A stretch of DNA of 32,774 nt from Candidatus Ratteibacteria bacterium (GCA_049970595.1 JBMFMQ010000003.1:1-32774), one strand, 5' to 3'; counted from the first letter of the stretch, positions 733 through 29,909 are shown. The notes: generated by a model not told the origin, from the letters alone. Numbers and translations are program-made.

Positions 733-1488
733 ATGGGAAGAAAAATAAAAAAATCTGGGTTCACATTAATAGAGTTGTTGGTAGTAGTTGCTATCATTGC
801 TATTCTTGCAGCGATGCTACTACCAGCATTAAGTAAAGCGCGAGAAAGGGCTAGACAAGCAGTATGTATAAGTAATTTAAAACAGATATGGCATGCTTTG
901 ACTATGTACACTGAGGACCATGATGGCTGGTTTTTACCTGTTAATCCTCCCTATCCTCAGTACTGGGGAGGTGTTGTATCATTAAGACCATGGTTTGAAC
1001 TGCTTGGAAAATGGGGCAGATATTCTATTTTAGATTATGGTGTTTATTTAGGTGCTCCCGGAAGTAGTTATAGTAGAGGTGGTAAAACTTTGTTCTGCCC
1101 GAGTGAAAAAAGGCAATTTACTTATACTCATTATGCAATTAATCAATGGCTTGTTGGTAGGTATACCACGAGTGGTGAGGGGTTTGTTCCTGATCCAACT
1201 TATGGTCCATACTTAAAAAAAATAAATAAAGTGAGAAATCAATCTGTTGCAATATGGGTAGTGGATAATGGTGTTCCTTCAGCGGATTCTATTACTTATT
1301 TTTATGCCCAACCATATACTTACGCTTACAATAATTTCAGACATATGAATGAAAGTTGTAATATTCTTTATGTTGATGGACATGTTGAAGCAAAAACAAA
1401 ACGGGATATGGGGCTTCCTAATGGTGGTGCTACAAGTATTCCTTTAAGAAGAGGTTTTGTGTTGCCAGATGGTAGTTATAATCCATAA
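733..1488 (+). CDS. Prepilin-type N-terminal cleavage/methylation domain protein, H-X9-DG/DUF1559-like pseudopilin (paralogue 1)
   Basis: SD AAAGGAGG upstream. N-terminus MGRKIKKSG|[29 protein letters not shown] is a class III signal with G-1, F+1, E+5. C-terminal FRH-x10-DGHVE resembles the H-X9-DG motif. Confidence 0.85.
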
Positions 1489-1503
1489 AAAAAAGGAGGG
1501 AGT

Positions 1504-4500
1504 ATGTTTAAAAAAGCAGGAATTTTTTTGTCTTTTCTTACTTTTTTATGTTTTGGAGAGAGTAAACTTGTTTTTCATCTATCTTTTGATAATGAACAGG
1601 TAAATGATGTTTCTGGAAATATAAAAGGAGAGGTAAAGGGAGGGAGATTTGTAGAAGGAAAGATTGGAAAGGGTATATATTTTGATGGAAAAGAGAGGGA
1701 AGCAGAATGTATAATTTTTAAAGATTTAGCAAAAGATAGATTTTTTCAGGACTTTGAAGGAGGGCCTTTTACAATAAGTGTATGGATAAAGCCAGATTCA
1801 ACAAAAGAATATAATAAACAGCAGGAGATTTTAAATACAGCAAGTGATATAGGACCTGGATGGCGACTTACATATACATGGAGAATGATTATATTTAGGA
1901 CAGGAACAGGAAAAAGGGATGAACAGGGGAAAGGAGAATACTGGGAAGTTACAACAAATCCGAGTATAGATAAGGTAAAACCTGATGAATGGAACCATAT
2001 AGTTGTTGTCAGGAATGAGGAAGGAGTTTTATCATTGTATCTAAATGGTAAAAAAGTTGCAGAAAGTGAAAAGAAGTTTGATATTATACCATCAAATAGA
2101 TTTTTAACAGTAGGTGCTTATATAGGAGGATATGCATATGGATTTAAAGGGGTTATAGATGAGGTAAAGATATATAAAGGTGCATTAAGTCCAGAGGAGA
2201 TTTTGAAAGAATATGAAGTAGAGGGAAAGAAAATTAAACTTGATGGAAAACTTGATGAAGATATATGGAAAAAAGGTAAAGTATTCACAAATTTCAAATT
2301 AATTAATACAGATAATTTTGCGCCTGTCCAGACAAAAGTTATATTCAGTTATGATATAGACAATCTTTATTTTGCATTTATATGTGATGAACCAGATATT
2401 GCAAAATTAAAAAATGAAATAAAAGAAAATTCATTGAGAGTTTACAGAGATGATAGTATTGAAATAATGATAGATGCTGATAACAATAAAGGTGATTATT
2501 ACCATTTTTTATTCAATCCTTCTGGCTTTTATGGTGTTGAATTCAGAACTCAAAGTGGATTTGTAGGTTCAGAGGTAAAGGGTTTTAAATTATTTACAGG
2601 CACAGATATAGCAAAGGATAGATGGATAGTTGAAATAGTTATTCCCTATTCTTCTTTAACACTTGAAAGAATAAAAAATGATATATCATTAAATTTTGCA
2701 AGGAATAGAAGGGTTGATTTATCCTCAATACAGGAAAGTTCAATAGCAGAAAAAGGACAGTTTCATAATCCATTTGTTTTTATACCTTTAAAACTTGAAA
2801 ATATTGATTTGTCATTATATGCAGTTGAGATGAAAGATATAGAATTTGTAGAAACAGAAAAAAAAGATGAAAAAATAAATGTGAAATTAAAAGGAAAAAT
2901 AAAAAACCTGACAGATAAAGAGAAAGACCTTGAAATAGAGATATATGAAGGACAACTGGGTATTTTAGGAAAGACAAATTTACAGATTTTGCCTGAAAAA
3001 GGGGGAGAATTTTTCTTGAATATAATAGTTCCAGAACCAAAGGAATATAATTTTACAATAGATATAAAGGAAAGAGGCAAAAAGATTTATAGTGGAAATT
3101 TTCCAGTAAAGGTTTCATATATACCGATTTCACTTGAATTATTAAAACCAGTTTACAGAAATTCTATATATCCGACACAGAAGATAGATGAGATAGTATT
3201 AAATGTAAAAGTTGGACTGAAAGATGATGAAATGAAAGGAATTGATGAGGAAATTTTAATTGTTGATAAAGAGGGAAAGGAAATAGTGAAAAAATCAATT
3301 AAACCAGAAAAAGAGACAGATATCACATTAAAAATACTGCAGTTGAAAGAAGGGGAGTATAAAATAGTTGGTAGATTAAAAAAAGAAAAAAATGTAGTTT
3401 ATGAGACAGGAATTCCACTCTACATATTACCAAAACCAAAAGGTAATGAGGTTTATATAGATGAAAATTTAAATCTTGTATTAAATGGAAAACCTATAAT
3501 GCCGGTGATATGGTGGGGTGGTTCTCCTTACCAGGAAATAGCAAAGACAGGAGCAGATGGAATTATTGTTGGTGTAGGAGACCTTGATAGTTTAAAAGAG
3601 TTAGGGTTATATGGAGAAGTTATGCTTTTATGGGGAAGTGAGCAGAAAAAATATTTTGAAGGGCAAGATACATTATCAGAAGAAGCAGTAAAGGTAATAA
3701 CAGAAAAGATAAATTCGGTTAAAGACCATCCAGCATTATTATTCTATTATTTAACAGATGAACCAGAGGTAAGAAGTTTAAGTGCCAATCTTTTAAAAGA
3801 GGTTTATGAACTTATAAAAAGATTAGACCCATACCATCCTGTGCAGATAACAAATGATACAGTTAAAGGAATAGAAACATATATAGAATGTGCTGATATG
3901 TTTCTCCCAGACCCTTATGTTTGTCCTCTCGTTGATGGTAGTTTAACAAGACCGATGACATATATAATTCCTTTTATGGAAGAAATAAAAAAGGCAGGGA
4001 AGAAGAGAAAATTTGTAGGTATAACTCCTCAGGTATTTGATTATGGGAAGGTATATGCAAGCCGTCCTCCATATTCAACAAGAAATAACAGGGCTCCAAC
4101 CTTTGTAGAAGAAAGATGTATGAATTATCTTGCAATTATTTATGGAGCAAAGGGATTTAATTATTATGTATACGGGAAAAGAGAAGAAGGGCACTGGGGA
4201 GCAGTAAATATCCCTGATCTAAGAGTTGGTATGCCATATTTAATAAAAGAGAAAAAAGCATTAAGTGATGTTATATTACTGGGTAAAGATGTAAAAGAAA
4301 AAGTTAATATTGAGGATAAAAAAATACATTATACAGTAAGACAATATAAAGGAAAGACATATATAATAGCAGTAAATGTAGAACCTGTTGAAGTAAATGC
4401 AGAGATAAAATTGCTGGAAAATATAAAAGAATTAAAAGTAATATCAGAGAAAAGAAAAATAAATGTAAATGATGGGAAATTTTTAGATATATTTAAACCT

Positions 4501-4617
4501 TACGATGTTCATATATATACAGATGACCTCAAATTCCAGGATGTAATTGATTTAAAAATGGTTGAAGGAGAGATAAAAAAGGAAGGTGGGTGGTTTACAT
4601 ATCAATATAAAAAATGA
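1504..4617 (+). CDS. Secreted multidomain carbohydrate-active-like protein (signal peptide, LamG/concanavalin-like, CBM9/DOMON-like, Ig-like spacer, C-terminal TIM-barrel glycosidase-like region)
   Basis: SD AAAGGAGGGAG. Signal peptide MFKKAGIFLSFLTFLCFG. LamG-type block: FTISVWIKPD...WNHIVVVRNEEGVLSLYLNGKKV...IDEVKIYKGALSPEEI. CBM9-type block: DGKLDEDIWKKG...YRDDSIEIMIDADNNKGDYYHFLFNPSG. C-terminal LFYYLTDEPE region. The catalytic family is not resolved. Confidence 0.6.
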   Translation: MFKKAGIFLSFLTFLCFGESKLVFHLSFDNEQVNDVSGNIKGEVKGGRFVEGKIGKGIYFDGKEREAECIIFKDLAKDRFFQDFEGGPFTISVWIKPDSTKEYNKQQEILNTASDIGPGWRLTYTWRMIIFRTGTGKRDEQGKGEYWEVTTNPSIDKVKPDEWNHIVVVRNEEGVLSLYLNGKKVAESEKKFDIIPSNRFLTVGAYIGGYAYGFKGVIDEVKIYKGALSPEEILKEYEVEGKKIKLDGKLDEDIWKKGKVFTNFKLINTDNFAPVQTKVIFSYDIDNLYFAFICDEPDIAKLKNEIKENSLRVYRDDSIEIMIDADNNKGDYYHFLFNPSGFYGVEFRTQSGFVGSEVKGFKLFTGTDIAKDRWIVEIVIPYSSLTLERIKNDISLNFARNRRVDLSSIQESSIAEKGQFHNPFVFIPLKLENIDLSLYAVEMKDIEFVETEKKDEKINVKLKGKIKNLTDKEKDLEIEIYEGQLGILGKTNLQILPEKGGEFFLNIIVPEPKEYNFTIDIKERGKKIYSGNFPVKVSYIPISLELLKPVYRNSIYPTQKIDEIVLNVKVGLKDDEMKGIDEEILIVDKEGKEIVKKSIKPEKETDITLKILQLKEGEYKIVGRLKKEKNVVYETGIPLYILPKPKGNEVYIDENLNLVLNGKPIMPVIWWGGSPYQEIAKTGADGIIVGVGDLDSLKELGLYGEVMLLWGSEQKKYFEGQDTLSEEAVKVITEKINSVKDHPALLFYYLTDEPEVRSLSANLLKEVYELIKRLDPYHPVQITNDTVKGIETYIECADMFLPDPYVCPLVDGSLTRPMTYIIPFMEEIKKAGKKRKFVGITPQVFDYGKVYASRPPYSTRNNRAPTFVEERCMNYLAIIYGAKGFNYYVYGKREEGHWGAVNIPDLRVGMPYLIKEKKALSDVILLGKDVKEKVNIEDKKIHYTVRQYKGKTYIIAVNVEPVEVNAEIKLLENIKELKVISEKRKINVNDGKFLDIFKPYDVHIYTDDLKFQDVIDLKMVEGEIKKEGGWFTYQYKK

Positions 4618-12077: not shown

Positions 12078-12407
12078 ATGAAAAATTTTATTTACATTTT
12101 AATTTTAGTTTTACTTTCAGGTTGCTCATTTATAAAAACAAAAGGAACCTTTCTTGATAAAAATTACAGAGAAAATTATGTTAAAAGTCACCAGGTAAAT
12201 GAGGAATGGAAAAAAAATATAATTGAGGGGAAGATACCAAATGGAATGGAAAAAAAAGATGTTGAAGAGATACTCGGGAAAAATTATTTTGTTTATAAAT
12301 CAGATACAGAGATGATGGAAATATGGTTTTATAAATACTATTATGTAGGATTTGATAAAAACGGTAAAGTCATAAAATTTGGAATTTCTAACCAGAATTA
12401 CAAATAG
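12078..12407 (+). CDS. Small lipoprotein, BamE/SmpA-OmlA-like
   Basis: SD AAAGGAGG. Lipobox LLSGC. GMEKKDVEEILGKN...WFYKYYYVGFDKNGKVIKF resembles the SmpA/OmlA fold pattern. Confidence 0.35.
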   Translation: MKNFIYILILVLLSGCSFIKTKGTFLDKNYRENYVKSHQVNEEWKKNIIEGKIPNGMEKKDVEEILGKNYFVYKSDTEMMEIWFYKYYYVGFDKNGKVIKFGISNQNYK

Positions 12408-13198
12408 TTTTCATTTTTATTTTCAAGTAGATATGATGGAAGACCAAATACATTAATTTTTTTTGTAAATGGATTTTTGTAAACAAGGACCTTCGTATTA
12501 TAAACATTTTCTATATTTTGATATGTCAAAACTTCTTCTACATTCCCTTTTTTATAAATTTCTCCGTTTTTAAATAAAATCAATTTTGAACAATAACAGG
12601 AAGCAAGGTTTAAATCATGAAATATACCTATTATTGTAATTCCTTTTTCATTCAATTTTTTTAAAATATCCATAATCTGAAACTGGTATCCAATATCAAG
12701 ATGGCTTGTTGGTTCATCAAGTAAAATAACCTCTGGATTCTGGATTATTATCTGGGCAATATAAATCCTTTGTTTTTCTCCTTCAGAAAGTTCATTAATT
12801 TTCTTTTTAAAAAATTTTTTAATATCCAATTTAATACCAACTTCTTCAATTATCTCCTCTTTTTCTTTTCTAAATCTACCTAAAAAAGGGAATCTACCCA
12901 ATGTTAAAAAATCAAATACATCAATATTAAATGTAATTTTAATTTCAGATGGTAAATAGGCAACCTCTTTTGCATAATCAATATTTCTTATTTTTTTTAA
13001 GTCCTTTCCTTTATAAAAAACATAACCATCAAAAGATATTAAAATTTTTGAAAGGACCTTTAAAAAAGTTGTCTTTCCACTTCCATTCGGACCAACAATT
13101 CCAACAAATTCACCTTTGTAAATTTCAAAATTTATATTTTTGAGAACTCTATTTTTCCCATAACTGAATTTTAAATTTCTTACTTCATAAATTACCAT
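12398..13198 (-). CDS. btuD: ABC transporter ATP-binding protein, corrinoid/iron-siderophore (FecE/BtuD) type
   Basis: Walker A GPNGSGKTT, signature LSEGEKQR, Walker B ILLDEPTSHLD. Last gene of the riboswitch-controlled operon. Confidence 0.75.
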   Translation of the reverse strand: MVIYEVRNLKFSYGKNRVLKNINFEIYKGEFVGIVGPNGSGKTTFLKVLSKILISFDGYVFYKGKDLKKIRNIDYAKEVAYLPSEIKITFNIDVFDFLTLGRFPFLGRFRKEKEEIIEEVGIKLDIKKFFKKKINELSEGEKQRIYIAQIIIQNPEVILLDEPTSHLDIGYQFQIMDILKKLNEKGITIIGIFHDLNLASCYCSKLILFKNGEIYKKGNVEEVLTYQNIENVYNTKVLVYKNPFTKKINVFGLPSYLLENKNENYL

Positions 13199-14142
13199 AT
13201 TTTTGTTTCCTTAAATAATAAAAATAAAAAGAAAATTCCACCAAAGAAACCTGTTATAACTCCAACAGGAATTTCAACAGGTCTTATTAAAATTCTTGAA
13301 ATTGTATCGCATAAAACTAAAAAACAACCACCAGTTAAAAAAGAAAATGGTATAAGTTTTTTATGAATTGAGCCATAAATAGCCCTTACAATATGTGGAA
13401 TTATAAGACCAACAAAACCAATTATTCCTGATAGACAAACACATAAGGATGAAATAAGACAACTTATAAAATAAGCAAAATTTTTTTCAAAATTTACATT
13501 AACCCCAAGCGTTATTGCTTTTTCTTCATCAATACTTAAAATATCATAAATTCTTCCAGAAAAAGTCAAAAATAAAAATGAAGCAAAAATTAAAAAAGAG
13601 GCATAGATTAAAATTTTTTCTGAAAATGATGATAAATCACCAAATAAAAATAAGACAGTTGAATGGAATTTTTCATAATGAGAAATTGAAATTAAAAATA
13701 AAACAAGAGATGAGCATATAAAATTTAAAGAAATTCCAGCAAGAATTATTGAAGAAGTTGAAAATTTTTTTATTATTGATAATGAAATAATTAAAAAAAG
13801 TGAAAAGATAGAACCAAAAAATGCAAAAAATGGAATTGAATATACTTTACCCAATATTGTTCCAATTGCAATACCAAGTGAAGCACCACCAGAAATACCA
13901 AGAGTATAACTTTCAGCAAGTGGATTTTTAAGAACAGATTGTAAAATTGCCCCTGAAATTGAAAGCCCAGAACCAACAATAAATGCACATATTACTCTTG
14001 GTATCCTGATTTTTAGAAAAATTGTCTTTTCAATTTCAGAAAGATTAAAAATATCCTTTAAAGTATAAATCTTTGAACCAAAAAAAATACCAAAATAGAT
14101 TGAAAAAATGAAAAATAAAATAAAAAAAAGATTCTTTTTCAA
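13192..14142 (-). CDS. btuC: FecCD-family ABC permease (corrinoid importer)
   Basis: Polytopic. RIPRVICAFIVGSGLSISGAILQSVLKNPLAESYTLGISGGASLG is the typical FecCD motif. Overlaps its neighbours by 4 and 7 nt. Confidence 0.8.
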   Translation of the reverse strand: MKKNLFFILFFIFSIYFGIFFGSKIYTLKDIFNLSEIEKTIFLKIRIPRVICAFIVGSGLSISGAILQSVLKNPLAESYTLGISGGASLGIAIGTILGKVYSIPFFAFFGSIFSLFLIISLSIIKKFSTSSIILAGISLNFICSSLVLFLISISHYEKFHSTVLFLFGDLSSFSEKILIYASFLIFASFLFLTFSGRIYDILSIDEEKAITLGVNVNFEKNFAYFISCLISSLCVCLSGIIGFVGLIIPHIVRAIYGSIHKKLIPFSFLTGGCFLVLCDTISRILIRPVEIPVGVITGFFGGIFFLFLLFKETKIW

Positions 14143-14651
14143 TATTCAATCCCCTTCCTTGATTTTATTCCTTTATCATATGGATGCTTTATTTTTTTTA
14201 TTTCACTAACAAGGTCTGCCTTTTCTATAATCTTTTTTGTTGCTCCTCTTCCTGTTAAAACAAGTTCAATATTTTCTGGCTTTTGGTCCATTATTTCAAT
14301 TATCTCTTCTTCTTTTAAAAATCCATCTCTTAAAGAAATTAAAATCTCATCGCATATAACAACATCATAATTCTTTTTTTTGAAAATATTCTTTATAAAA
14401 TCAATTCCTTTCAAACATTCTCTCCTTATTTCTTCTTTCTCTACTTTTTCAAAATAAGGATGTTTTTCAGCAAAAGAAAAAAGATCAACACCAATTTTTT
14501 TCAATATTTTTTTCTCATTATAATTTTTTTTGTGGAAAAATATAAAGCATACATTTAAATCATGACTTTTAGCCCTTAAGGCAAGCCCAATTGCTGCTGT
14601 TGTTTTTCCTTTCCCATCTCCAGTGTAAACTTCAACCAGACCCTTTTCCAT
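14139..14651 (-). CDS. cobO: Cob(I)yrinic acid a,c-diamide / corrinoid adenosyltransferase (CobO/BtuR type)
   Basis: VYTGDGKGKTTAAIGLALRA P-loop, DEILISL, 170 aa. Confidence 0.8.
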   Translation of the reverse strand: MEKGLVEVYTGDGKGKTTAAIGLALRAKSHDLNVCFIFFHKKNYNEKKILKKIGVDLFSFAEKHPYFEKVEKEEIRRECLKGIDFIKNIFKKKNYDVVICDEILISLRDGFLKEEEIIEIMDQKPENIELVLTGRGATKKIIEKADLVSEIKKIKHPYDKGIKSRKGIEY

Positions 14652-15369
14652 TTTTAATTACATTCTTTTTTAAAGGATATTTTCCACATGAAAATTTTTC
14701 GCTTTCAGGGCAGTATCCAAGTGTTTCACATTTTGCTCCTGCATCTTCAAAAACTTCTGGTAAATTTTTTTTGCATATTTCAAGCATTTTATATGCAAGT
14801 TCTCTTATTTCCCATTGAGCGCGTGTGCAGCATCTTACTCTGAAAAAATGTAATAATTCCCTTACATTCATAGAAACAACAATTTTTGTTTCAGCAGCAT
14901 TTGGCAGAATATACCTTGCATCCTGATTTGCTTTTTCTCCTTCAATTCCAAGTTCTTTAAATCTTTTAATCATATTTATATAGACATCCCTTATTTTCTC
15001 TATCCCTTCAATAAAATATTTCTTTAAAATTTCATCCTTTTGAATTGAAGGTGGAATTATATATTTAAAATTATCTATTCTTACATATCTCTGACTCTGC
15101 TGTGAGTATGAAGCAATACGATGTCTGACAAGTTGATGGGAAAGTGCCCTTGAAATTCCCTCTATTGCAAAAGTAAATTTAACATGTTCAAGAACACTTT
15201 CATGTCCACTTTTTACTATTTCTCTTACAAATCTCTTCTTTTTCTCCATATCTATTTTTTTACTCTTTTCAAATATATCAAATGCAAATTCAGAAGAATA
15301 ACATTGTCTTGCAGCAGAATAAATAATTTCAACAGGATTTTTGCTCATTTCAATAAGTTCTACTCTCAT
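14632..15369 (-). CDS. thyX: FAD-dependent thymidylate synthase ThyX
   Basis: ThyX signature RHRIASYSQQSQRY. ESVLEHV. ~245 aa. Confidence 0.85.
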   Translation of the reverse strand: MRVELIEMSKNPVEIIYSAARQCYSSEFAFDIFEKSKKIDMEKKKRFVREIVKSGHESVLEHVKFTFAIEGISRALSHQLVRHRIASYSQQSQRYVRIDNFKYIIPPSIQKDEILKKYFIEGIEKIRDVYINMIKRFKELGIEGEKANQDARYILPNAAETKIVVSMNVRELLHFFRVRCCTRAQWEIRELAYKMLEICKKNLPEVFEDAGAKCETLGYCPESEKFSCGKYPLKKNVIKNGKGSG

Positions 15370-15390
15370 TTTTTCTCCTTTTTCAAAATT

Positions 15391-16191
15391 TTAGTTTAAC
15401 TTCATTATTTCTTTAACAATCTCAACAAAAGATAATGGTGTTGGACTGCATATTTTATCACTATCAATTACAAAAATTTTACCATTTTTAACAGCATTTA
15501 TCATCCTATATTTTCCCCAGTTTTTCTTTTCTTCCTCTGTATCTATTCCCATAGAAGTAATTATTATTATATCTGGGTTTAATTTTATAATTTCTTCAAT
15601 GCTATATATCCCCCCTTTTCCTTCTATGACATTTTTCATCCCAGCAAATTCAATTATATCATTGATAAAAGAATCTTTTCCTGCAACCCACAATGGTCTT
15701 GAACCAACCTGAACAAGAACTTTCTTTTTTTCTACCTTTTCTTTTTTTTCATAAAGTTGCTTTTTAACTTTTTTTATTATATCCTTTGCCTCTTTTTCTT
15801 TTCCAATAATTTTTCCAAGTTTTATAAAATCAAGGCATAATTGCTCAAAATTTAAAGGATATGAGAATATTTCAACTTTTATTCCAAGTTCTTTTAATTT
15901 TTTTATATCTTTTGGATTTGTTAAATTTGTTGCAAATACAATATCTGGCTTTAATGAATAAATCTTTTCAACATTAATATCAATAACATTTCCAACCTTT
16001 TCTTTATATTTTGCTTGGTTTGGTCTTGTGCAATATATAGTATTTCCAACAATTTTATCTCCAAGCCCAAGAATAAAAATATTTTCTGTTATTGCTGGTC
16101 CAAGAGAAACAATCCTTTTTGGTATATTTTCTGAATTTGAAAAAAAAATATAAATAAAAAAGAAAATTAAAATTTTTTTCATTTTGAACAT
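15391..16191 (-). CDS. btuF: Periplasmic binding protein of the BtuF/FhuD class (corrinoid-binding component)
   Basis: Signal peptide. RIVSLGPAITENIFILGLGDKIVG and PDIIIITS motifs of PF01497-type binding proteins. Operon context. Confidence 0.7.
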   Translation of the reverse strand: MFKMKKILIFFFIYIFFSNSENIPKRIVSLGPAITENIFILGLGDKIVGNTIYCTRPNQAKYKEKVGNVIDINVEKIYSLKPDIVFATNLTNPKDIKKLKELGIKVEIFSYPLNFEQLCLDFIKLGKIIGKEKEAKDIIKKVKKQLYEKKEKVEKKKVLVQVGSRPLWVAGKDSFINDIIEFAGMKNVIEGKGGIYSIEEIIKLNPDIIIITSMGIDTEEEKKNWGKYRMINAVKNGKIFVIDSDKICSPTPLSFVEIVKEIMKLN

Positions 16192-17354
16192 ATTTTAACC
16201 ATTATTCCTGCAATAAGACCTCCAATTATATCATCAATAAATGGTGGAAGTTTTTTTATTATTCCTGGTTTGGTTCTATCTATTCTTTCAAATTCAAAAA
16301 GTGCAAGTTTCCCTCCAATATATTCAGCAATCTGAATACCAATAATTTCATCAGCAATCAATTCAACAGGGTCATTTTCATAATCTTTTAAATTTGGGAT
16401 TATACCTTTTTTACCTTCCTCATGTAGTTTTAAACCTGCAATAATTAAAGAAGAAATATTAACATCATTTAAAATTTTCTCAAGTTCTTTCTCAAATAAT
16501 TTTTTAACCTTATTTTTATCGCCAATCTTTTTATCTTCAATATATGTTTCCATTGCTGTTTTTATAATATCTTCCTTTCTTATCCCTCTTTCTCTTAACC
16601 TTTCAATAATTGGTCTATCTATAAATATTTTATTTTGTTTTTCCATACTTTCTTTTATAGCAAAATATACTGTTTTTGCAAGTATTTCTCCAAATTTTGA
16701 ATGACCTCCTGCATATGTTATTTTCTCTTTATCTCCTGAAATAAAAATTATATTATCTGTGCCAGTTCCTGTTGCCTGATTTTCAAGACCACTATAAATT
16801 GAACGAATATCAAAATCCTGAAAAATTTTTGTTTTTGCTTCTGTTATTGTTATCAATGAGTTTAAAAAACCACTTTCTGTCAAAAAACAGTTTGTATAAA
16901 ATAAAACATTTATAGTCCCAATTTTATAAAATTTACCATTTTTTTCATACCAGTTTCCTTTATCAGAAGCAACTGTTAAAGAATTTGATTTAACTCCACA
17001 AGTTGCAAAACAAATAATTTTATAATTTTTAAAATTTTCTTCACAGATTCCGAAGTTTTCAACATCAACACCTGTAAAAAGCAAAGAAATTTCATCTTCA
17101 TTATATCCAAGATTTTTTTTAATTTGGTCTTTATATTTAATCCATTCTTCTGAATTCATTTCCCAGAATCTCCTTGGAACAGAATTTATACCGACAAATT
17201 TTACCTCTTTAAAACCTTCAAGTGTTGACAAAATTTTTCTTTTTTTATCAAAAGAAAATATAAGTGTTTTTGTTTTCTTTTCAAAAATAGAATGTTTTAA
17301 AATATAGGATTTAATTTTTTCTCCCTTTTCTTCAAATAAATTTAAAATTTCCAT
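16179..17354 (-). CDS. cbiZ: Adenosylcobinamide amidohydrolase CbiZ fused to a C-terminal PgpA/CobZ-like domain
   Basis: N-terminal ~250 aa are CbiZ-like (ILSTLEGFKEVKFVGINSVP...TGTGTDNIIF). The C-terminal ~140 aa contain ADEIIGIQIAEYI and PPFIDDIIGGLIAGIM. These resemble the E. coli PgpA motifs DEFIGMWITL and MIDDIVAGVISAGI as I recall them. Confidence 0.65.
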   Translation of the reverse strand: MEILNLFEEKGEKIKSYILKHSIFEKKTKTLIFSFDKKRKILSTLEGFKEVKFVGINSVPRRFWEMNSEEWIKYKDQIKKNLGYNEDEISLLFTGVDVENFGICEENFKNYKIICFATCGVKSNSLTVASDKGNWYEKNGKFYKIGTINVLFYTNCFLTESGFLNSLITITEAKTKIFQDFDIRSIYSGLENQATGTGTDNIIFISGDKEKITYAGGHSKFGEILAKTVYFAIKESMEKQNKIFIDRPIIERLRERGIRKEDIIKTAMETYIEDKKIGDKNKVKKLFEKELEKILNDVNISSLIIAGLKLHEEGKKGIIPNLKDYENDPVELIADEIIGIQIAEYIGGKLALFEFERIDRTKPGIIKKLPPFIDDIIGGLIAGIMVKICSK

Positions 17355-18289
17355 AAAAAGTCCCAGACAAAAAAGTTGAAAATTAAAAAAATAAAAGAAG
17401 TTAAATATGTTATTTTTAAACTCTCAATTATATGATTTAAATTTAACTTTTCTATTTCATCTCCAAGATATGGTTTAAAATTCATCACTTTATTGTAATA
17501 ATTTATCCCTCCAAGTTTTATCCCAAATCCACCTGCATAACAACTTTCAGGATATCCACTATTTGGACTTGGATGTTTTTTTCCATCCCTTATTGAAATT
17601 TTAAAGGCACAAATTCCCTTTCTTTTGTAAATAAAAAATGAAAAAGAGATAAAGAAAATTGATAAACGAGAAGGAAGAAAATTTAAAATATCATCAAATC
17701 TTGCAGAAGTTAATCCAAAGAATTTATATCTTTCATTCTTATATCCAACCATTGAATCAAGAGTATTAACAACCTTATAAAGAAGGCATAAAGGTGCACC
17801 ACCAATAAAACTATAAAAAATTGGGGAAATTATACCATCAACTGTATTTTCTGAAATTGTTTCTATTGTTGCTCTTATAATTTCGTTTTCATCAAGATTT
17901 TCTGTATCTCTCCTTACAACTCTTGATAGATAAAATCTTGCCTTTTTAATATCTTTGTTTTTAAGTGAATTGTAAATAGGAATTGTGTGGTCTTTTAAAT
18001 CCTTCAATGCAATAGATGTATAAATGAAAAATGATGAAAAGAAAAAGTAAAGAAATTTGTTATGTTCAAAAAGAAAACTAAAAAATTTAAAAGATAAAGA
18101 AAATAAGGTAAATGAGATGAAAATTGAAAAGAAAAAGCCACTTATAATTTCATTTTTTATAAATTTTCTAAAAATTTTTTCAAAAATTTTTGAAATAAAT
18201 GAAAAAAATTTAACAGGATGCGGAAAGTATTTTGGGTCTCCAAAAATTAAATCAAGAAAAAATCCAGTTATTGTTGGTAAAGTAAACAT
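17342..18289 (-). CDS. cbiB: Adenosylcobinamide-phosphate synthase
   Basis: LIFGDPKYFPHPVKF N-terminus, membrane protein, SPNSGYPE and GGINYY motifs typical of CbiB/CobD. Confidence 0.8.
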   Translation of the reverse strand: MFTLPTITGFFLDLIFGDPKYFPHPVKFFSFISKIFEKIFRKFIKNEIISGFFFSIFISFTLFSLSFKFFSFLFEHNKFLYFFFSSFFIYTSIALKDLKDHTIPIYNSLKNKDIKKARFYLSRVVRRDTENLDENEIIRATIETISENTVDGIISPIFYSFIGGAPLCLLYKVVNTLDSMVGYKNERYKFFGLTSARFDDILNFLPSRLSIFFISFSFFIYKRKGICAFKISIRDGKKHPSPNSGYPESCYAGGFGIKLGGINYYNKVMNFKPYLGDEIEKLNLNHIIESLKITYLTSFIFLIFNFFVWDFLWKF

Positions 18290-19335
18290 TTTAATTCATT
18301 TAAAAATTTTTCATTTTCATTTCTTTTTCTAACACATATTCTTATAAAATTTCTTCCAAGACCTTTTATATTTGAGCAATCCCTTACAAGTATCCCTTTT
18401 AACTTCAATTTCTCAATAAAAAATTTAAAATTTATATCTCTTTCAATCTTTATAAGGAAAAAATTTGCCTCTCCATTAAATACTTTAACTCCTTGAAGAA
18501 TTTTTAAATTTCTGTAAATATATTCTTTTTCCTCTTTTATCCTCTTTTTAATTTCTTTTAATTCAAAATCTATTAATTTTTGCGCAATATTTTCAGCCAA
18601 ACTATTAATATTCCAAGGATACATATATTTTGAAATAATTTTCGTTAAGTTTTTATCACCAATAAGATAACCAATTCTTAATCCAGGGATAGGGAATATT
18701 TTTGTAAAAGTCCTTAAAATAAGAAGATTTTTATACTTTTTTATTTCAGATACCAAACTTTCTTTTTCTGTAAAATCAATAAATGCCTCATCTATTAAAA
18801 AAATTTCATCTCTATTCTTTTTCAGAATTTCAATAATTTTCTCTTTTTCAATATAAAAACCAGTTGGATTATTTGGATTACATAAAAAAATAGAATCAAA
18901 AAAACTTTTATACTTTAAAATTTCATCAATTCTTATCTCAAAATTATCTTCTTCTTTTGTCTTTAAAAACAAAATTTTTCCACCATTTAATTTAATACTC
19001 CTTTCATATTCTGAAAATGTCGGTATAAAGATTATTGATTTTTTTAACTTTAATGCTTTTGGTATTAAATAGATTAGTTCAATAGAGCCATTTCCAAGAA
19101 TCACATTTTTATAAGAAACTGAAAATTTTTCAGCAATTTTTTCTCTTGTTTTTTTGTATTGACTATCAGGATAAAAAAATATATTTTCAATTGAAGAAAT
19201 AATCATATTTTTTATCTTTTCAAAATCAAAAAAAACATTAACATTTGAACTGAAATCAATTATCTTCTCTTTTTCAAAACCATATTTTTCAATCAACTCA
19301 TAAATATTACCACCATGCTTTAATAATTTTTCCAT
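18268..19335 (-). CDS. cobD: L-threonine-O-3-phosphate decarboxylase (class I/II aminotransferase fold)
   Basis: HGGNIYE...IIDFSSNVN N-terminus, CNPNNPTG, RTFTKIFPIPGLRIGY (PLP lysine). Context between cbiB and cobS. Confidence 0.75.
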   Translation of the reverse strand: MEKLLKHGGNIYELIEKYGFEKEKIIDFSSNVNVFFDFEKIKNMIISSIENIFFYPDSQYKKTREKIAEKFSVSYKNVILGNGSIELIYLIPKALKLKKSIIFIPTFSEYERSIKLNGGKILFLKTKEEDNFEIRIDEILKYKSFFDSIFLCNPNNPTGFYIEKEKIIEILKKNRDEIFLIDEAFIDFTEKESLVSEIKKYKNLLILRTFTKIFPIPGLRIGYLIGDKNLTKIISKYMYPWNINSLAENIAQKLIDFELKEIKKRIKEEKEYIYRNLKILQGVKVFNGEANFFLIKIERDINFKFFIEKLKLKGILVRDCSNIKGLGRNFIRICVRKRNENEKFLNELKCLLYQQ

Positions 19336-20053
19336 TGAAAATTGAAATTATTAAAAGAATTAAAATTTCATTGAACTCAACTATTGCTCCAATTGTATCT
19401 CCAGTTAAACCACCTATTTTTTTAGAAAAAAATTTGTTTAAAATGTATGTCAAAATTATAACAGGTAAAAAAAGTGATAATGAATTTATGCCTCCGGATA
19501 AAAATATGAGCACACATGATAAAATCGTTGAGTAAATAAAAATTTTTCCATTTATATTATCAAAGAATATTTTTGCCTTTCCATAATCTCTTGCATAATT
19601 AAAAAAATAAATTGAATAAACGATTGCCCATCTACTTAAAATTGGAAATAATATAATTGTTTGAAATTTAAAATTTTTTATTGAGTTTAAAAGAAATATT
19701 TTTGAAAGAACAACAAATAAAATTGAAAGAACACCAAAACATCCTATATTTTTATCTCTCATAATTTTAAGTATCTCATTTTTATTTTTCCCACCAAATA
19801 TTCCATCAAAAGTATCTGAAACACCATCAATATGTATTGCTCCGGTTATAAAAATTATGAAAAAAACTGTGATTGTATCAACAAAAATCAAAGAAAGAAA
19901 TTTAAGTAAATATTTATTTATAATTAATGAAAGAAAACCTATAATAAGACCACATAATGGGAAAAAAATCAATGAATATGGTAAGTCATTTTCATCTATT
20001 TCTTTAAATCTTAAAATTGTCAAAAACTGTATTGATGATAGGATTTTATTCAT
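19307..20053 (-). CDS. cobS: Adenosylcobinamide-GDP ribazoletransferase (cobalamin synthase)
   Basis: Polytopic. HIDGVSDTFDG and GGLTGDTIGA motifs. Confidence 0.8.
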   Translation of the reverse strand: MNKILSSIQFLTILRFKEIDENDLPYSLIFFPLCGLIIGFLSLIINKYLLKFLSLIFVDTITVFFIIFITGAIHIDGVSDTFDGIFGGKNKNEILKIMRDKNIGCFGVLSILFVVLSKIFLLNSIKNFKFQTIILFPILSRWAIVYSIYFFNYARDYGKAKIFFDNINGKIFIYSTILSCVLIFLSGGINSLSLFLPVIILTYILNKFFSKKIGGLTGDTIGAIVEFNEILILLIISIFNGKIIKAWW

Positions 20054-21108
20054 TTTATTTCCTTTGAAACGCCTGCTTCTTCAAAAGTAGCCATTTCATT
20101 TAAAATTTTTATACCAGATTCAACAAGAAAAATTCCAAGTGCTGCTCCTGTTCCTTCTCCAAGTCGTAAATTTAAATTTAATAGTGGTTCAAGTCCTATA
20201 TAATCAAGTAAAATTTTATGTCCAGGTTCAGAAGATAAATGTGAAGCAATCATATAATTTTTTGTTATGGGAGAAATTTTATATGCAATTAAAGCACCTG
20301 CACCTGAAATAAATCCATCAATCAAAACAGGAATTCTATTTTTTGCACATCCAATAATTACACCTGCTATTCCACCTATTTCAAATCCACCAACTTTTGA
20401 TAAAACATCAATTGGGTCAGAAGGGTCTGGTTTATTGAAACTTATTGCCTTTTTAATAACATCTATTTTCCTTTTATAAATATCATCACTTATTCCTGTT
20501 CCATATCCAGTTACCTTTTCAACTTCATTTCCTGTTATAACTGAAACAATTGCACTGCTTGGAGTTGTATTTCCAATTCCCATATCACCAACACCAGCAA
20601 TATCTATTGAACTTTTTTTCAATCGTCCTTCAACAATTTCTATTCCATAGTTTATTGATTGAATTGCTTGTTTTCTTGTCATTGCTGGCTGTTTTGTAAA
20701 ATTTTTTGTTCCATAATCAACCTTTTTAATAATAACTTTTTCATTGAAAATATCTTTTTTTACACCAATATCAACAACTATAACCTCTGCACCTACATGT
20801 CTTGCAAGAACATTTATTGCAGCAGTTCCTTTTAAAAAATTATAAACCATCTGTTCTGTAACCTCTTGTGGATATGCACTTACGCCTTCTTCACAAACTC
20901 CATGGTCTCCTGCAAGAGTAAATATAACTTTATTTTTAATTTTCACATCAGTTTTCCCTTTTATTCCACAATAAATAATTGCAAGTTCTTCAAGTTTTCC
21001 TAAACTACCTTTTGGTTTTGTTAAATTATCAAGTTTCTTCTTCGTTTGGTCCATTATTTTTTTATCTGGTAATTCAATTTCCTTTATATAATTTTCAAAA
21101 AACTCCAT
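20050..21108 (-). CDS. cobT: Nicotinate-nucleotide--dimethylbenzimidazole phosphoribosyltransferase
   Basis: KPKGSLGKLEE, GDHGV, GDMGIGNTT, LRLGEGTGAA motifs. Confidence 0.85.
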   Translation of the reverse strand: MEFFENYIKEIELPDKKIMDQTKKKLDNLTKPKGSLGKLEELAIIYCGIKGKTDVKIKNKVIFTLAGDHGVCEEGVSAYPQEVTEQMVYNFLKGTAAINVLARHVGAEVIVVDIGVKKDIFNEKVIIKKVDYGTKNFTKQPAMTRKQAIQSINYGIEIVEGRLKKSSIDIAGVGDMGIGNTTPSSAIVSVITGNEVEKVTGYGTGISDDIYKRKIDVIKKAISFNKPDPSDPIDVLSKVGGFEIGGIAGVIIGCAKNRIPVLIDGFISGAGALIAYKISPITKNYMIASHLSSEPGHKILLDYIGLEPLLNLNLRLGEGTGAALGIFLVESGIKILNEMATFEEAGVSKEIK

Positions 21109-21625
21109 TATTCTTTTCTCCTTTCAATTTTAATGGTATTCCTGAAACAATTAAATAAACATAATCAGAATTTTCTGAAATTAACTGATGAACTTTTCCA
21201 ATTATATCCCTAAAATCTCTTGCAATCTTATTTTCAGGAACTATTCCCCATCCAACTTCATTTGAAACAATTATAGCACAACATTTTTCCTTTCTTATCT
21301 TTATTATCAAATTTTTAACCTTATTTATTATTTCTTTTTCTCCATAATTTTTAAGCATCAAATTTGTTATCCATGTTGTAATACAATCAATAATATAATC
21401 ATTTCCACTTTCTATAAAATTTTCAATATCTATATTTTCTTCAACTGTTTTCCATTCTTTTGGTCTTGTCTTTTTATGTTTTTCTATCCTTTCTTTCATT
21501 TCATCATCAATTTCTTTACCAGTTGCGATAAAAACAACATTTTTAAAATTTTCTTTTGCTATCTTTACAGCAAACTTACTTTTTCCACTTCTACATGGTC
21601 CAGTAATAAAAATTATATTTTTCAT
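21095..21625 (-). CDS. cobU: Bifunctional adenosylcobinamide kinase / adenosylcobinamide-phosphate guanylyltransferase
   Basis: ITGPCRSGKS P-loop, ATGKEIDDEMKERIEKHK, IVSNEVGWGIVPEN. 176 aa. Confidence 0.8.
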   Translation of the reverse strand: MKNIIFITGPCRSGKSKFAVKIAKENFKNVVFIATGKEIDDEMKERIEKHKKTRPKEWKTVEENIDIENFIESGNDYIIDCITTWITNLMLKNYGEKEIINKVKNLIIKIRKEKCCAIIVSNEVGWGIVPENKIARDFRDIIGKVHQLISENSDYVYLIVSGIPLKLKGEKNNGVF

Positions 21626-22370: not shown

Positions 22371-22395
22371 AAAAAAGCCCGCCAACCTGGCGGGC
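22371..22395 (-). terminator. Intrinsic terminator acting as riboswitch expression platform
   Basis: Minus strand reads GCCCGCC-AGGTT-GGCGGGC followed by TTTTTT. It lies between the aptamer and the SD of the pilin-like gene. Confidence 0.75.
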
Positions 22396-22616
22396 TGCAC
22401 CCGATTTCTTTGCCATTACTTTCTGCCCTCGCAGAAAGTAAATTCGCCAATCTGGGGCAGGTCTTCTGACTCGGGCTTCATCCTACTCGGCTGCCTTCCC
22501 ATCCTTTACGGACAGTGGCATTTTGCCTTTCGTCTGCCCTCACAGCTCCGGGGGAGTGGCTGATCATCCATTTATGGACTACAGCACTTCCCTATTAAGC
22601 CATAAAGGCACCCCAG
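22371..22616 (-). promoter_or_regulatory. Cobalamin (B12) riboswitch, aptamer ~22452..22616 plus expression platform
   Basis: This is the only GC-rich stretch in the window. Reverse complement: CTGGGGTGCCTTTATGGCTTAATAGGGAAG...GCCACTCCCCCGGAGCTGTGAGGG...TGCCACTGTCCGTAAAGGATGGGAAGGCAGCC...AGTCAGAAGACCTGCCCCAG. P1 pairs CTGGGG (22611..22616) with CCCCAG (22452..22457). GCCACTG core at 22513..22519. B12 box AGTCAGAAGACCTGCC at 22456..22471. Extra 10-bp hairpin at 22417..22440. Confidence 0.85.
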
Positions 22617-22627
22617 ATTTATATAAA

Positions 22628-22655
22628 ATTATAAAATCAAAAAAATTTTTGTCAA
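22628..22655 (-). promoter_or_regulatory. Sigma70-type promoter driving the riboswitch and B12 operon
   Basis: Minus strand has TTGACA (22655..22650), a 16-nt spacer, then TATAAT (22633..22628). This puts the start ~22620, just upstream of the P1 helix. Confidence 0.6.
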
Positions 22656-24668: not shown

Positions 24669-24670
24669 AT

Positions 24671-25219: not shown

Positions 25220-25247
25220 TTTGCCTCCACCCTTTATTATATAACAT

Positions 25248-25276
25248 TTGCAAAGAAAATTAAATAATATTAAAAT
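25248..25276 (+). promoter_or_regulatory. Candidate promoter for the kinase-phosphatase pair
   Basis: TTGCAA (25248..25253), 17-nt spacer, TAAAAT (25271..25276). Followed by SD AAAGGAG and ATG 25302. Confidence 0.4.
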
Positions 25277-25301
25277 TATTTGGTTTTTTCAAAGGAGAAT
25301 T

Positions 25302-27213: not shown

Positions 27214-27231
27214 ATCTCCTCCTTTTTTAAT

Positions 27232-27260
27232 ATTATATATAACTTTTTCAAAATTTTCAA
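27232..27260 (-). promoter_or_regulatory. Candidate promoter for 26764..27213
   Basis: Minus strand has TTGAAA (27260..27255), a 17-nt spacer, then TATAAT (27237..27232). Confidence 0.45.
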
Positions 27261-27282
27261 GTTTATTTTGAAAAATAAAATT

Positions 27283-27293
27283 TGTGATATAAT
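27283..27293 (+). promoter_or_regulatory. Extended -10 promoter TGTGaTATAAT for the epimerase genes
   Basis: TGTGATATAAT ends 12 nt before ATG 27306 and there is no SD in between. This implies a very short or absent leader. Confidence 0.5.
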
Positions 27294-27305
27294 TAATTTT
27301 TGAAA

Positions 27306-28280
27306 ATGGGAAGAAAAATTTTGGTGGCAGGGGCGTGTGGTTTTATTGGATGGAAAGTAAGTGAGAAATTGCTTGAGAAAGGAGATGAAGTTATTGGAAT
27401 TGATGACTTGAATGATTATTATGATGTTCGTTTAAAAATATGGAGACTTGAAAGGTTAAAAAAATACAAGAATTTTATAGATGTAAAATTTGATATTTCA
27501 AAGGATGAAATAAAGTATATTGTAAAGGAAGCAAAACCTGATATAATAATAAATCTTGCTGCAAGAGCAGGAGTAAGAGCAAGTATTGAAAATCCTGAAA
27601 TTTATTATCTCACAAATGTTATTGGAAATTTAAACCTTCTTGAATGTGCAAAGGATTTCGGAATTAAAAAATTTATTCTTTCTTCAACTTCATCCTTATA
27701 TGCTGGTTTTCCTGTCCCATTTAAAGAAGATCTACCTGTTAACAATCCAATATCACCATATGCAGCAAGTAAAAAAGCAGCAGAAGTTACTTGTTATACA
27801 TATCATTATTTATATGGAATTGATGTTGTTATTTTTAGATATTTTACAGTTTATGGACCATGTGGAAGGCCTGATATGAGTATTTTCAAATTTATAAAAA
27901 TGATAGATGAGGGGAAAGAAATAACTGTTTTTGGAGATGGGACACAAAGCAGAGATTTTACTTATATTGATGATATTGCAGATGGAACTATTTTGGGACT
28001 TAATCTGTTTGGTTTTCATATAATAAATCTTGGTAATAATAATCCACATCAATTGAATGAAGTTATAAAAATTATTGAAAAAAAACTTGGGAAAACAGCA
28101 AAAATTATTTATAAAGATTTTCATAAAGCAGATATTAAACAGACATATGCAGATATTACAAAAGCAAAAAATTTACTTGGCTGGTCTCCAAAAATTGACA
28201 TAGAAGAAGGAATTGAACATACAGTAAATTGGTATAAAGAAAATAAACACTGGATTAAAGATATAGTATTAAAGGATTGA
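27306..28280 (+). CDS. NAD-dependent sugar-nucleotide epimerase/dehydratase (UDP-glucuronate 4-epimerase-like SDR)
   Basis: VAGACGFIGWKV Rossmann motif and YAASK catalytic motif, ~325 aa. ATG 27306 preferred over TTG 27300. Confidence 0.75.
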   Translation: MGRKILVAGACGFIGWKVSEKLLEKGDEVIGIDDLNDYYDVRLKIWRLERLKKYKNFIDVKFDISKDEIKYIVKEAKPDIIINLAARAGVRASIENPEIYYLTNVIGNLNLLECAKDFGIKKFILSSTSSLYAGFPVPFKEDLPVNNPISPYAASKKAAEVTCYTYHYLYGIDVVIFRYFTVYGPCGRPDMSIFKFIKMIDEGKEITVFGDGTQSRDFTYIDDIADGTILGLNLFGFHIINLGNNNPHQLNEVIKIIEKKLGKTAKIIYKDFHKADIKQTYADITKAKNLLGWSPKIDIEEGIEHTVNWYKENKHWIKDIVLKD

Positions 28281-29205
28281 TGGCAAAGGTACTTGTTACT
28301 GGTGGATGTGGTTTCATAGGGAGTCATACTGTTGATAGATTGATAGAAGAAGGTAATGAAGTTTTTGTTATAGACAATCTTTCAACAGGTTTTATTGAAA
28401 ATCTGAATAAAAAAGCAATTTTTTACAATATTGACATACAGAACAGGGATGAATTAAGAGAAATATTTGAAAATCAAAGATTTGATTTTGTATTTCATTT
28501 TGCTGCACAGATAAATGTAAGAAGAGGAGAAGAAGACCCGAATTTTGATATTAATGTAAATGTATTAGGAACATTAAATTTACTTGAGGAATTGAAAAAA
28601 AATCCACCTATAAAAATTATTTTTTCTTCAACAGGTGGGGTTATTTATGGATTGACTAATATATTTCCAACTCCTGAGGATGTTGAACCTTTCCCTATAT
28701 GTATTTACGGAATTTCAAAGTTAACATGTGAAAAATACTATATTCTTACTTCAAAAATTATGGTATTAACTTTGTTTCTTTAAGATATGGAAATGTTTAT
28801 GGACCAAAACAGAATTATTTATCAGAAGCAGGTGTAATCAGTATTTTTATATCAAGGATTCTTGAGAGAAAAGAATGTATAATTTTTGGAGATGGAAACC
28901 AGACAAGGGATTTTATTTATATTGATGATGTGGTTGATGCAAATATTTTATTTATGAAAAATGATGTAAATGGAATTTTTAATGTTGGAACTGGAATAGA
29001 AACATCTGTAAATAGAATTTTTGAGATTATAAAAGAAAATATTGGAAAAGATTGTAAAAAAGTTTATACAAAAGAAAAAAAGGGAGAATTAAGAAGAAGT
29101 TGTATTTCAATTGAAAAAATTAGAAGAAAAACAGGATGGTTTCCAAAATATAAAATTGAAGAAGGGATAAAAAGAACAATTAACTGGTTTTTAAATAAAA
29201 ATTAA
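28277..29205 (+). pseudogene. GalE-like NAD-dependent epimerase interrupted by a single frameshift
   Basis: Frame A (28277..28783) gives VTGGCGFIGSH...YGISKLTCEKY and then nonsense to a TAA. The other frame is open from 28732 and reads KILYSYFKNYGINFVSLRYGNVYGPKQ...GDGNQTRDFIYIDDVVDA... to 29205. Together they form one complete extended-SDR. The A5 run at 28731..28735 is the simplest slip site. Confidence 0.75.
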
Positions 29206-29909
29206 TAGGATGAACTTTCCCATTCAACATCACTTATAAACACATTATAATCTCTAAAAGCAAGATTTAAAACCTTCTGTTTAAAATTATAGTGATGCCA
29301 AAAACATCTAACAATTGGAACCTGACCACCATATCCATGCAATGACTGCCAGATTTTTGCTTCCTTCCAGGTTACAATTCCATCTCCATTTGTGTCTGCC
29401 TGCTGTATTTCTCCTGGTGTGTGAGTACTTTCAAACCATCTACTTTCCGTTGGAGCAAATTCATAAGAATAAGAAGATTTTTCAATATCCGGGTTTCTGT
29501 AGGTGTAGGCAAGTGAATCAAAAGGAGATGGAGAATAGGAATAATATAATTGAACTTTTGATAGTGGAATATCATTTATTTCTGGATAAGAAAGATTACC
29601 ATGTCCTCTTTCTCCTTTATTTAAATCAGTCAAACATATAAATATCTTCCCTTTTCCAAGATAATTACTTCCAAGACCAATTGTCTCACTTTTACATAGA
29701 TTTGAAAGCCATGTTGGATAATCTTCATAATCCTGATAATACATTTCAATTGCAAGTCCAATCTGATGTAAATTGTTTATACAGTTTGCCTGTCTTCCTT
29801 TTTCTCTCGCAGTTGAAAGTGATGGTAATATCTGACCTGCAAGCATTGAAATTATTGCAATTACAACAAGGAGTTCAATTAAAGTAAAGCCAGATCTTTT
29901 AATTTTCAT
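29202..29909 (-). CDS. Prepilin-type N-terminal cleavage/methylation domain protein (paralogue 3, C-terminal H-X9-DG motif degenerate)
   Basis: MKIKRSG|[40 protein letters not shown]. The C-terminus has FWHHYNF...AFRDYNV instead of H-X9-DG. Confidence 0.8.
   Translation of the reverse strand: MKIKRSGFTLIELLVVIAIISMLAGQILPSLSTAREKGRQANCINNLHQIGLAIEMYYQDYEDYPTWLSNLCKSETIGLGSNYLGKGKIFICLTDLNKGERGHGNLSYPEINDIPLSKVQLYYSYSPSPFDSLAYTYRNPDIEKSSYSYEFAPTESRWFESTHTPGEIQQADTNGDGIVTWKEAKIWQSLHGYGGQVPIVRCFWHHYNFKQKVLNLAFRDYNVFISDVEWESSSY

Follow-up and report, generated by a model that had tools for sequence, protein, structure and literature searches.

Vitamin B12 riboswitches are known to regulate genes for biosynthesis, transport, cobalt supply and B12-independent isoenzymes. 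Among the regulated envelope components that act before the BtuFCD importer are BtuB/TonB and the Bacteroides surface binders BtuG and BtuH. We consider here a stretch of 32,774 nucleotides from a Candidatus Ratteibacteria bacterium (GCA_049970595.1, JBMFMQ010000003.1:1-32774; hereafter the window, meaning the whole of this DNA), which encodes three pilin-like open reading frames (ORFs). All three are confirmed at the coordinates originally predicted for them, and we call them P1 (733..1488, plus strand), P2 (21626..22351, minus strand) and P3 (29202..29909, minus strand). P2 opens a B12 operon behind a cobalamin riboswitch. It resembles BtuB, BtuG and BtuH in being linked to a B12 riboswitch and in the envelope step proposed for it before BtuFCD, but it has no homology to them, being pilin-like rather than a TonB-dependent barrel or a surface lipoprotein.

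Proteins with pilin signals have a described role in nutrient binding in the Sulfolobus bindosome, in which sugar-binding proteins with class III signal peptides are assembled by the Bas system (PMC3047682). The likeness to P2 lies in the association of an extracytoplasmic pilin-signal protein with an ATP-binding cassette (ABC) importer, the P2-family gene usually being found beside btuFCD. The differences are that the pilin-signal proteins of the archaeal bindosome are themselves the solute-binding proteins, whereas P2 operons encode a separate canonical BtuF, that the head of P2 is unrelated to binding-protein folds, and that no Bas-like genes are linked to it. With the GspG-K pseudopilins of type II secretion and the type IV pilins P2 shares a prepilin leader, the G-1/F+1/E+5 residues, a long alpha-1 helix and a globular head, although the head of the P2 family is larger and has no solved relative, and its genes are solitary and far from any machinery. 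Competence pseudopili take up DNA, so that a filament of this type can be used for uptake.

The family to which these proteins belong, DUF1559/H-X9-DG, has 68 paralogues in Planctopirus limnophila, two of which are essential, and its function is unknown (PMC10632474). P1 and P2 have the N-terminal region of the Planctomycetes family and its H-X9/10-DG motif, but the B12-linked branch is found mainly in genomes labelled Ratteibacteria, Omnitrophota and Armatimonadota. Planctomycetes fibres that bind dextran (PMC5394234) offer a loose precedent for substrate "fishing", although no DUF1559 protein has been tied to such fibres. In the literature we found no report linking a pilin or a DUF1559 protein to B12 riboswitches, and the searchable part of it yielded no description of a pseudopilin regulated by a vitamin riboswitch.

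The riboswitch-pilin link

P2 is a DUF1559/H-X9-DG pseudopilin of 241 amino acids, with the leader MKKNLKKVG followed by FTLIE. Upstream of it, on the same minus strand, a sigma-70-type promoter at 22628..22655 (TTGACA and TATAAT separated by a 16-nt spacer; 12/12 matches) precedes a cobalamin riboswitch aptamer at 22439..22630, which matches RF00174 over the full length of the model at 104.3 bits, against a gathering threshold of 31.5 (E = 2.6e-25). The riboswitch, which the original prediction did not mention, ends 88 nt 5' of the P2 ATG on the coding strand. Between the aptamer and the Shine-Dalgarno sequence lies a strong intrinsic terminator, with its hairpin at 22376..22396 (AGCCCGCC-AGG-TTGGCGGGCT, then a T-run), after which come the AGGAGG Shine-Dalgarno and the P2 ATG at 22351. 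This terminator is presumably the expression platform of the riboswitch, and its presence suggests that the switch works in the OFF direction.

More than 120 full-length relatives of P2 were found at 50-88% identity, those with names being labelled Ratteibacteria, Omnitrophica/Omnitrophota, Armatimonadetes or plain "bacterium". All of the relatives come from metagenome-assembled genomes (MAGs), and the taxon labels given here are approximate. The original prediction had looked to the Planctomycetota for this family, a placement that needs correcting, as the closest relatives of P2 are labelled Ratteibacteria or Omnitrophota. Six relatives (54-68% identity) could be placed on contigs, and all six are in B12 operons behind an RF00174 riboswitch. 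The layouts among these six are a pilin, a MetH-like S-methyltransferase and btuFCD; cobO, a pilin and btuFCD; two pilins, two MetH-like genes (S-methyltransferase and pterin-binding) and btuFCD; a pilin followed by cobS, cbiB, cobQ, cobU, cobT, cbiK, cbiC, nicO and cbiD; and a pilin with btuF and btuC.

A wider set of loci was obtained by scanning one genome per GTDB species with head-domain motifs only ([RK]P[FY]TGY[AG]YN and GP[NTL]VHFRH[NS]), so that the choice of loci was blind to genomic context. The best 80 of 130 relatives were kept, with head-domain identities of 39-91% and labels that include Ratteibacteria, Omnitrophota, Armatimonadota (Zipacnadia, Fimbriimonadales, Chthonomonas), WS1 and Victivallales. 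For riboswitch detection we used an nhmmer profile made from seven known examples, together with Rfam runs, and a locus was considered assessable if it had at least ~350 nt of upstream DNA. A B12 riboswitch is present just 5' of the pilin, on the same strand, in 64 of the 69 assessable loci, and either a riboswitch or a B12 gene neighbour is present in 76 of all 80, while no further riboswitch match occurs elsewhere across the 857 kb of these loci. Rfam covariance models confirm the riboswitch at 26 loci including the window, the remainder being detected by the nhmmer profile, and three riboswitch classes (RF00174, RF01482 and RF01689) are found 5' of pilins. The regulatory link between riboswitch and pilin is firm, and P2 is a pseudopilin recruited to a vitamin regulon.

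Of the 62 loci in which the downstream DNA extends for at least 1.5 kb, 45 have same-strand B12 genes after the pilin, the commonest being btuF, directly next to it. The operons have at least five layouts (pilin-btuFCD; pilin-metH-like-btuFCD; cobO-pilin-btuFCD; pilin-cobU/T/S; and pilin-cobS-cbiB-cobQ-...-cbiK/C/D), and the BtuF encoded in these B12 operons is a separate protein of the Peripla_BP_2 type. At 13 loci there is no B12 gene after the riboswitch and pilin. Four loci (L065, L068, L072 and L074) have one or two riboswitches with no B12-related gene behind them except the pilin, groES-groEL lying downstream (in L068 after one intervening diphthamide-synthase-like ORF), and because the pilin stands alone behind the riboswitch in these cases, the pilin itself is the regulated target. 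Several of the loci with the pilin as sole controlled gene are Armatimonadota, behind tandem riboswitches. Two complete cobalamin aptamers are arranged in tandem 5' of the pilin at six loci, namely L068:7247-7718, L072:2896-3333 and L074:1512-1982, in each of which the pilin is apparently the only regulated gene, and L075:2978-3481, L080:856-1334 and L089:492-982. A single pilin motif was found within ~8 kb in 68 of the 80 loci, so the pilin is normally solitary, and no TonB-dependent receptor was present in the Pfam-annotated loci on the contigs of P2 relatives. A profile of the P2 head domain recovers 37 clusters (at 50% identity) at E <= 1e-30 against 5715 at E <= 1e-3, making the B12-linked group a small branch of a large family.

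In the window, P2 opens a 12-gene operon whose 11 following genes span 12398..21625 on the minus strand. The stop codon of P2 abuts cobU with 0-nt spacing, the later genes overlap or are at most 21 nt apart, and within the run we found no convincing internal terminator and no excess of promoters. In order of transcription, and as identified by Pfam scan, the genes are cobU (21095-21625), cobT (20050-21108), cobS (19307-20053), an aminotransferase of the CobD/CobC type (18268-19335), cbiB (17342-18289), cbiZ-PgpA (16179-17354), btuF (15391-16191), thyX (14632-15369), cobO/btuR (14139-14651), btuC (13192-14142) and btuD (12398-13198). P2 is the first cistron of this corrinoid salvage, remodelling and import operon, which B12 would repress. 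As the operon encodes only salvage and remodelling genes (cbiZ, cobU/T/S and cbiB), the organism depends on imported corrinoids. Two of the genes have features of their own: CbiZ, an adenosylcobinamide amidohydrolase, continues at its C-terminus into a fused PgpA-like segment, and thyX, embedded between btuF and cobO, encodes a flavin-dependent thymidylate synthase.

Several further features were observed in the related loci. Under the B12 riboswitch, a homocysteine S-methyltransferase of the MetH N-terminal type, sometimes accompanied by a pterin-binding protein, is encoded between the pilin and btuF, and this stand-alone S-methyltransferase domain occurs at L001:8718-9623, L003:8756-9649, L007:8748-10470 and many other loci. 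Neither the S-methyltransferase nor the pterin-binding protein matches a B12-binding domain, and the former may be a methionine synthase that works without B12 and is repressed by it. A single B12 riboswitch precedes two tandem DUF1559 pilins at L007:7191-8729 and in L035 (~7860 and ~8653), the pilin paralogue in L007 retaining a similar C-terminal tail (SDNSLYDWY). At L089:1846-2742 and L091:8571-9998, signal-peptide proteins with similar N-terminal regions follow the riboswitch-controlled pilin; the one in L089 has a PEP-CTERM motif at its end, the two are otherwise without a Pfam match, and they may be further B12-linked envelope proteins. Right after btuD in L005 there is a group II intron domain (L005:11534-11617; RF00029, 46 bits), and then a 539-aa ORF without a Pfam match.

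Three pilin-like proteins and their partners

Each of the three proteins has a short basic leader with Gly(-1), followed by FTLIELLVV with F+1 and E+5, as expected of a prepilin, and each scores above the cut-offs of N_methyl (PF07963) and TIGR02532. The DUF1559/SBP_bac_10 model (PF07596, gathering cut-off 23.3 bits) is matched by P1 at 30.2, by P2 at 51.2 and by P3 at 38.5 bits, these matches being confined to profile positions 2-46 of 268 (about the first 30-46 positions). Matches to TIGR01710 (GspG) are limited to the N-terminal 55-60 residues and score 40.8-42.8 bits, against an equivalog cut-off of 88.85, and the matches of the N-termini to GspG/GspH models are weak, with scores beneath every equivalog cut-off. 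Pfam scans of the other large ORFs of the window detected no prepilin peptidase, T2SSE, T2SSF/platform protein or secretin. The genes had been described as three orphan pseudopilins with no pilus or type II secretion system (T2SS) machinery in the window, and both parts of that description agree with these results. The first 55 mature residues, which had been called almost identical, are clearly homologous, but the wording was too strong, with 40/55 positions identical between P1 and P2, 34/55 between P1 and P3, and 35/55 between P2 and P3. Global alignment against shuffles detects a relationship between the C-terminal domains of P1 and P2 (z = 5.3) but finds that of P3 similar to neither (z = -0.2 and 1.9). 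The H-x10-DG of P1 and H-x9-DG of P2 are present as proposed, but the supposed degenerate motif of P3 is an EF-hand-like loop, and the head that carries it is mostly helical.

In addition to its H-x9-DG motif, P2 scores 21.4 bits with TIGR04294 (cut-off 19). Across 50 P2 orthologues the G-1, F+1, T and E+5 residues are invariant, and the WDF, RPFTGYAYN and NNYLRAP motifs, a further 10-residue motif and an acidic C-terminal tail are strongly conserved in these orthologues but absent or altered in P1 and P3. The head as a whole is strongly conserved, with a mean column identity of 53%. The AlphaFold2 model of P2 (from the 50 orthologues; pLDDT 89.7, pTM 0.81) predicts a helix at 12-62 and a beta-rich head, which would be a pilin-like fold of long N-terminal helix and globular head. 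A Foldseek search of this model against the PDB returned nothing at E <= 0.001, the best match being a type IV pilin at E = 0.16, and showed no similarity of the head to binding-protein folds. A PDB sequence search with P2 matched the N-terminal pilin helix only, and the top matches of both searches are pilins aligned over the helix only. We considered and rejected a DxHxxG cobalamin-binding motif for the sequence DGHVEA, as the final Gly is absent and DGH is common to the whole DUF1559 family.

P1 (251 amino acids) is a DUF1559-type pseudopilin whose H-X10-DG is not accompanied by a TIGR04294 match. A promoter-like site at 479..507 on the plus strand (11/12 matches; extended -10 TG) would place ~225 nt of leader before P1, and an Rfam search of 1..760, around and upstream of P1, gave nothing at E <= 1. 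Positions 1-732 of the window contain ~730 nt without a convincing ORF. The gene is followed after 15 nt by one for a secreted LamG/CBM9 protein (1504..4617, plus strand; 1037 amino acids), which has an N-terminal signal peptide, Laminin_G_3 and CBM9 domains and a weak match to a GH2-like TIM barrel. P1 has ~19 orthologues, and in three further P1 loci (52-65% identity) the LamG/CBM9 protein starts 16-28 nt after the pilin, so that a protein of ~1040 amino acids follows P1 in 4/4 loci (the window, L010, L011 and L094), although in L094 it is split into two ORFs. The genes beyond the partner in the window (ceramidase-like, alanine racemase, AAT and the M55 peptidase DppA) are absent from the other three loci. 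By analogy with P2, P1 may serve the adjacent LamG/CBM9 protein.

P3 lacks H-X9-DG and has instead an EF-hand-like loop, DTNGDG, within DTNGDGIVTWKE, and a conserved RCFWH. It has ~60 orthologues; the F, T and E of the prepilin signature are invariant in 26 of them, and the orthologues conserve both RCFWH and the loop, as D-x-N/D-x-D/N-G-x-V/I-S/T-W-K/R-E. The loop is a putative calcium-binding loop of canonical EF-hand appearance. The AlphaFold2 model (pLDDT 88.7) has a helix at 10-61 and a helical head, unlike the beta-rich DUF1559 heads; Foldseek against the PDB found nothing at E <= 0.001, with short, weak matches to calmodulin-type EF hands. The stop of a gene for a HEAT-repeat protein with one N-terminal transmembrane helix (29906..30595, minus strand) overlaps the start of P3 by 4 nt. 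The HEAT-repeat protein likely starts at the ATG at 30595, and a promoter-like site at 30603..30631 on the minus strand (TTGACA, 17-nt spacer, TACAAT; 11/12 matches) ends 8 nt before this ATG. With the -10 element so close, a leaderless transcript is plausible. P3 follows the HEAT-repeat protein with the 4-nt overlap in 4/4 loci (the window, L012, L013 and L095); in the three further loci P3 is 41-58% identical, the HEAT protein is ~234 amino acids long and all other neighbours differ, the PfkB and RNaseHII-like genes before P3 varying between loci. P3 may, again by analogy, serve the membrane-anchored HEAT-repeat protein.

The neighbours had been described broadly correctly, with a LamG/CBM9/GH2-like set at P1, B12 genes at P2 and a HEAT protein at P3. 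In line with the original prediction, the placement of the paralogues is not random, every one of them belonging to an orthologous group with a conserved partner. The assignment of P1 and P3 to whole operons is right for the immediate partner, which is fixed in the four loci available for each pairing, but the genes beyond that partner vary between loci. For P2, co-regulation with a specific uptake and salvage pathway is borne out directly, by the riboswitch in the window and in the 64 loci counted above. From the fixed pairs of a pilin with a LamG/CBM9 protein and a pilin with a HEAT protein, a general rule of one head for each partner suggests itself, which could be mined genome-wide.

A few other features of the window were observed. 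The G+C content is ~28% overall (range 22-31%), and a GC skew of about +0.3 or -0.3 follows the coding strand throughout, amounting to a strong purine loading of the mRNA-sense strand. Among sequencing runs, the best match to this DNA is one from a hot-spring metagenome. At 28277-29205 a gene for an NAD-dependent epimerase/dehydratase, coming right after an intact 326-aa paralogue, looks truncated (168 amino acids, corresponding to PF01370 positions 1-152 of 240) and is followed by a separate 91-aa ORF; a frameshift, a pseudogene or an assembly error is possible.

Possible roles of P2

We give roughly even odds to the proposal that these proteins are specialised pseudopilins, each with one partner, and that P2 acts in corrinoid acquisition ahead of BtuFCD. 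P1, P2 and P3 would share a single stem for processing and polymerisation, consisting of the class III signal peptide and the hydrophobic alpha-1 helix with Glu5, while their heads would differ, each pilin coming from an old orthologous group tied to a single partner. When adenosylcobalamin is present the riboswitch would form the terminator, turning off P2 together with the corrinoid salvage and BtuFCD genes, and when B12 is scarce P2 would be made and exported. A prepilin peptidase and pilus machinery, both encoded elsewhere, would then cleave it and build it into a short type IV-like filament or pseudopilus, whose head may capture corrinoids or dock BtuF and so feed BtuF-BtuCD. P2 would in this way supply the envelope-crossing or capture step performed elsewhere by BtuB/TonB or BtuG. 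Among the classes of genes controlled by B12 riboswitches, P2 fits the transport class, as an exported pilin-like protein whose gene usually abuts btuF. Glu5 of pilins is tied to subunit packing in filaments, and its invariance favours a filament over a simple anchor.

Several observations weigh against this proposal. No riboswitch was detected in five of the assessable loci (L027, L052, L085, L087 and L093), and one of these, L027, labelled Victivallales, has a true orthologue beside a divergent cobO-btuFDC cluster. The P2 head has neither a solved structural relative nor a known B12-binding motif. Most of these operons encode a canonical BtuF, so the pilin is not needed as the binding protein of the ABC transporter. 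Genes for the assembly ATPase, platform protein, secretin and prepilin peptidase are not linked to the P2-family loci; among the 80 loci a T2SSE ATPase gene is nearby only in L005/L037 and L009, and we dropped the idea of a general linkage of pilus ATPase genes to the family. Finally, a search of sequencing runs matched only DNA contigs from hot-spring metagenomes, and no RNA.

The lack of linked assembly machinery and the presence of only one pilin gene in most loci would suit a role in B12 uptake without a filament, in which the N-terminus anchors the head to the inner membrane and P2 is a periplasmic corrinoid binder or a partner of BtuF, rather like membrane-tethered binding proteins. The same riboswitch and operon evidence applies to such an anchored protein, and the usual position of the pilin directly beside btuF agrees with it. 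A mere anchor would not need Glu5, however, and G-1, F+1 and E+5 are invariant in the 50 orthologues, the complete prepilin signature being kept by the whole DUF1559 family; we regard this explanation as less probable, at something over one chance in five. We think it improbable that P2 is instead an adhesin or contact pilin, induced by B12 starvation to attach small and possibly partner-dependent cells to B12-producing neighbours. The riboswitch on the pilin alone in some Armatimonadota, by which B12 scarcity would induce a surface-type protein, and the lineages concerned, which are uncultured Ratteibacteria/Omnitrophota-like and Armatimonadota MAGs, speak for it, but the tight and frequent adjacency to btuF and btuCD suits transport better, and the degree of conservation of the head is more in keeping with a fixed small ligand than with variable partner surfaces.

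The large signal-peptide protein that always follows P1, and the weak N-terminal matches of all three proteins to GspG/GspH models, could also be read as signs of substrate-specific minor pseudopilins of a T2SS-like system, guiding the export or surface display of the neighbouring product, which would be the LamG/CBM9 protein in the case of P1 and, in that of P2, BtuF or some other B12 scavenger. This also seems to us a minor prospect, since there are monocistronic riboswitch-pilin units without adjacent cargo, the BtuF of the window carries an ordinary Sec signal and that of L009 a lipoprotein signal, the GspG-family scores are only 41-43 bits, and no secretin or GspE/F gene is linked. It is very unlikely that the pilin, at the 5' end of B12 operons, is only a passenger without any B12-related role, because of the loci in which it is the only gene under the riboswitch; the linkage moreover persists down to 39-45% identity, in several phylum-level lineages, in at least five layouts and with three riboswitch classes.

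Meaning for the DUF1559 family

Few paralogous families of unknown function in PVC-type bacteria are as large as DUF1559. Because a riboswitch names its ligand, the B12-riboswitch pilin provides the first concrete functional link for this family, and one that can be tested cheaply. We offer, with considerable reservation, the broader suggestion that the DUF1559/H-X9-DG expansion might represent a bacterial "bindosome", in which heads specific for a ligand or partner would be carried on a common pseudopilus stem for nutrient capture at or beyond the outer membrane. If so, the B12-riboswitch pilin would be its first member with a nameable ligand, and would point to a TonB-independent route of vitamin uptake in Ratteibacteria/Omnitrophota-like bacteria and Armatimonadota. 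Should the P2 head bind corrinoids, B12 acquisition would have a component of a new kind, a type IV filament protein would be seen to serve vitamin uptake, and the scavenging of the vitamin by widespread uncultured B12 auxotrophs would be easier to understand.

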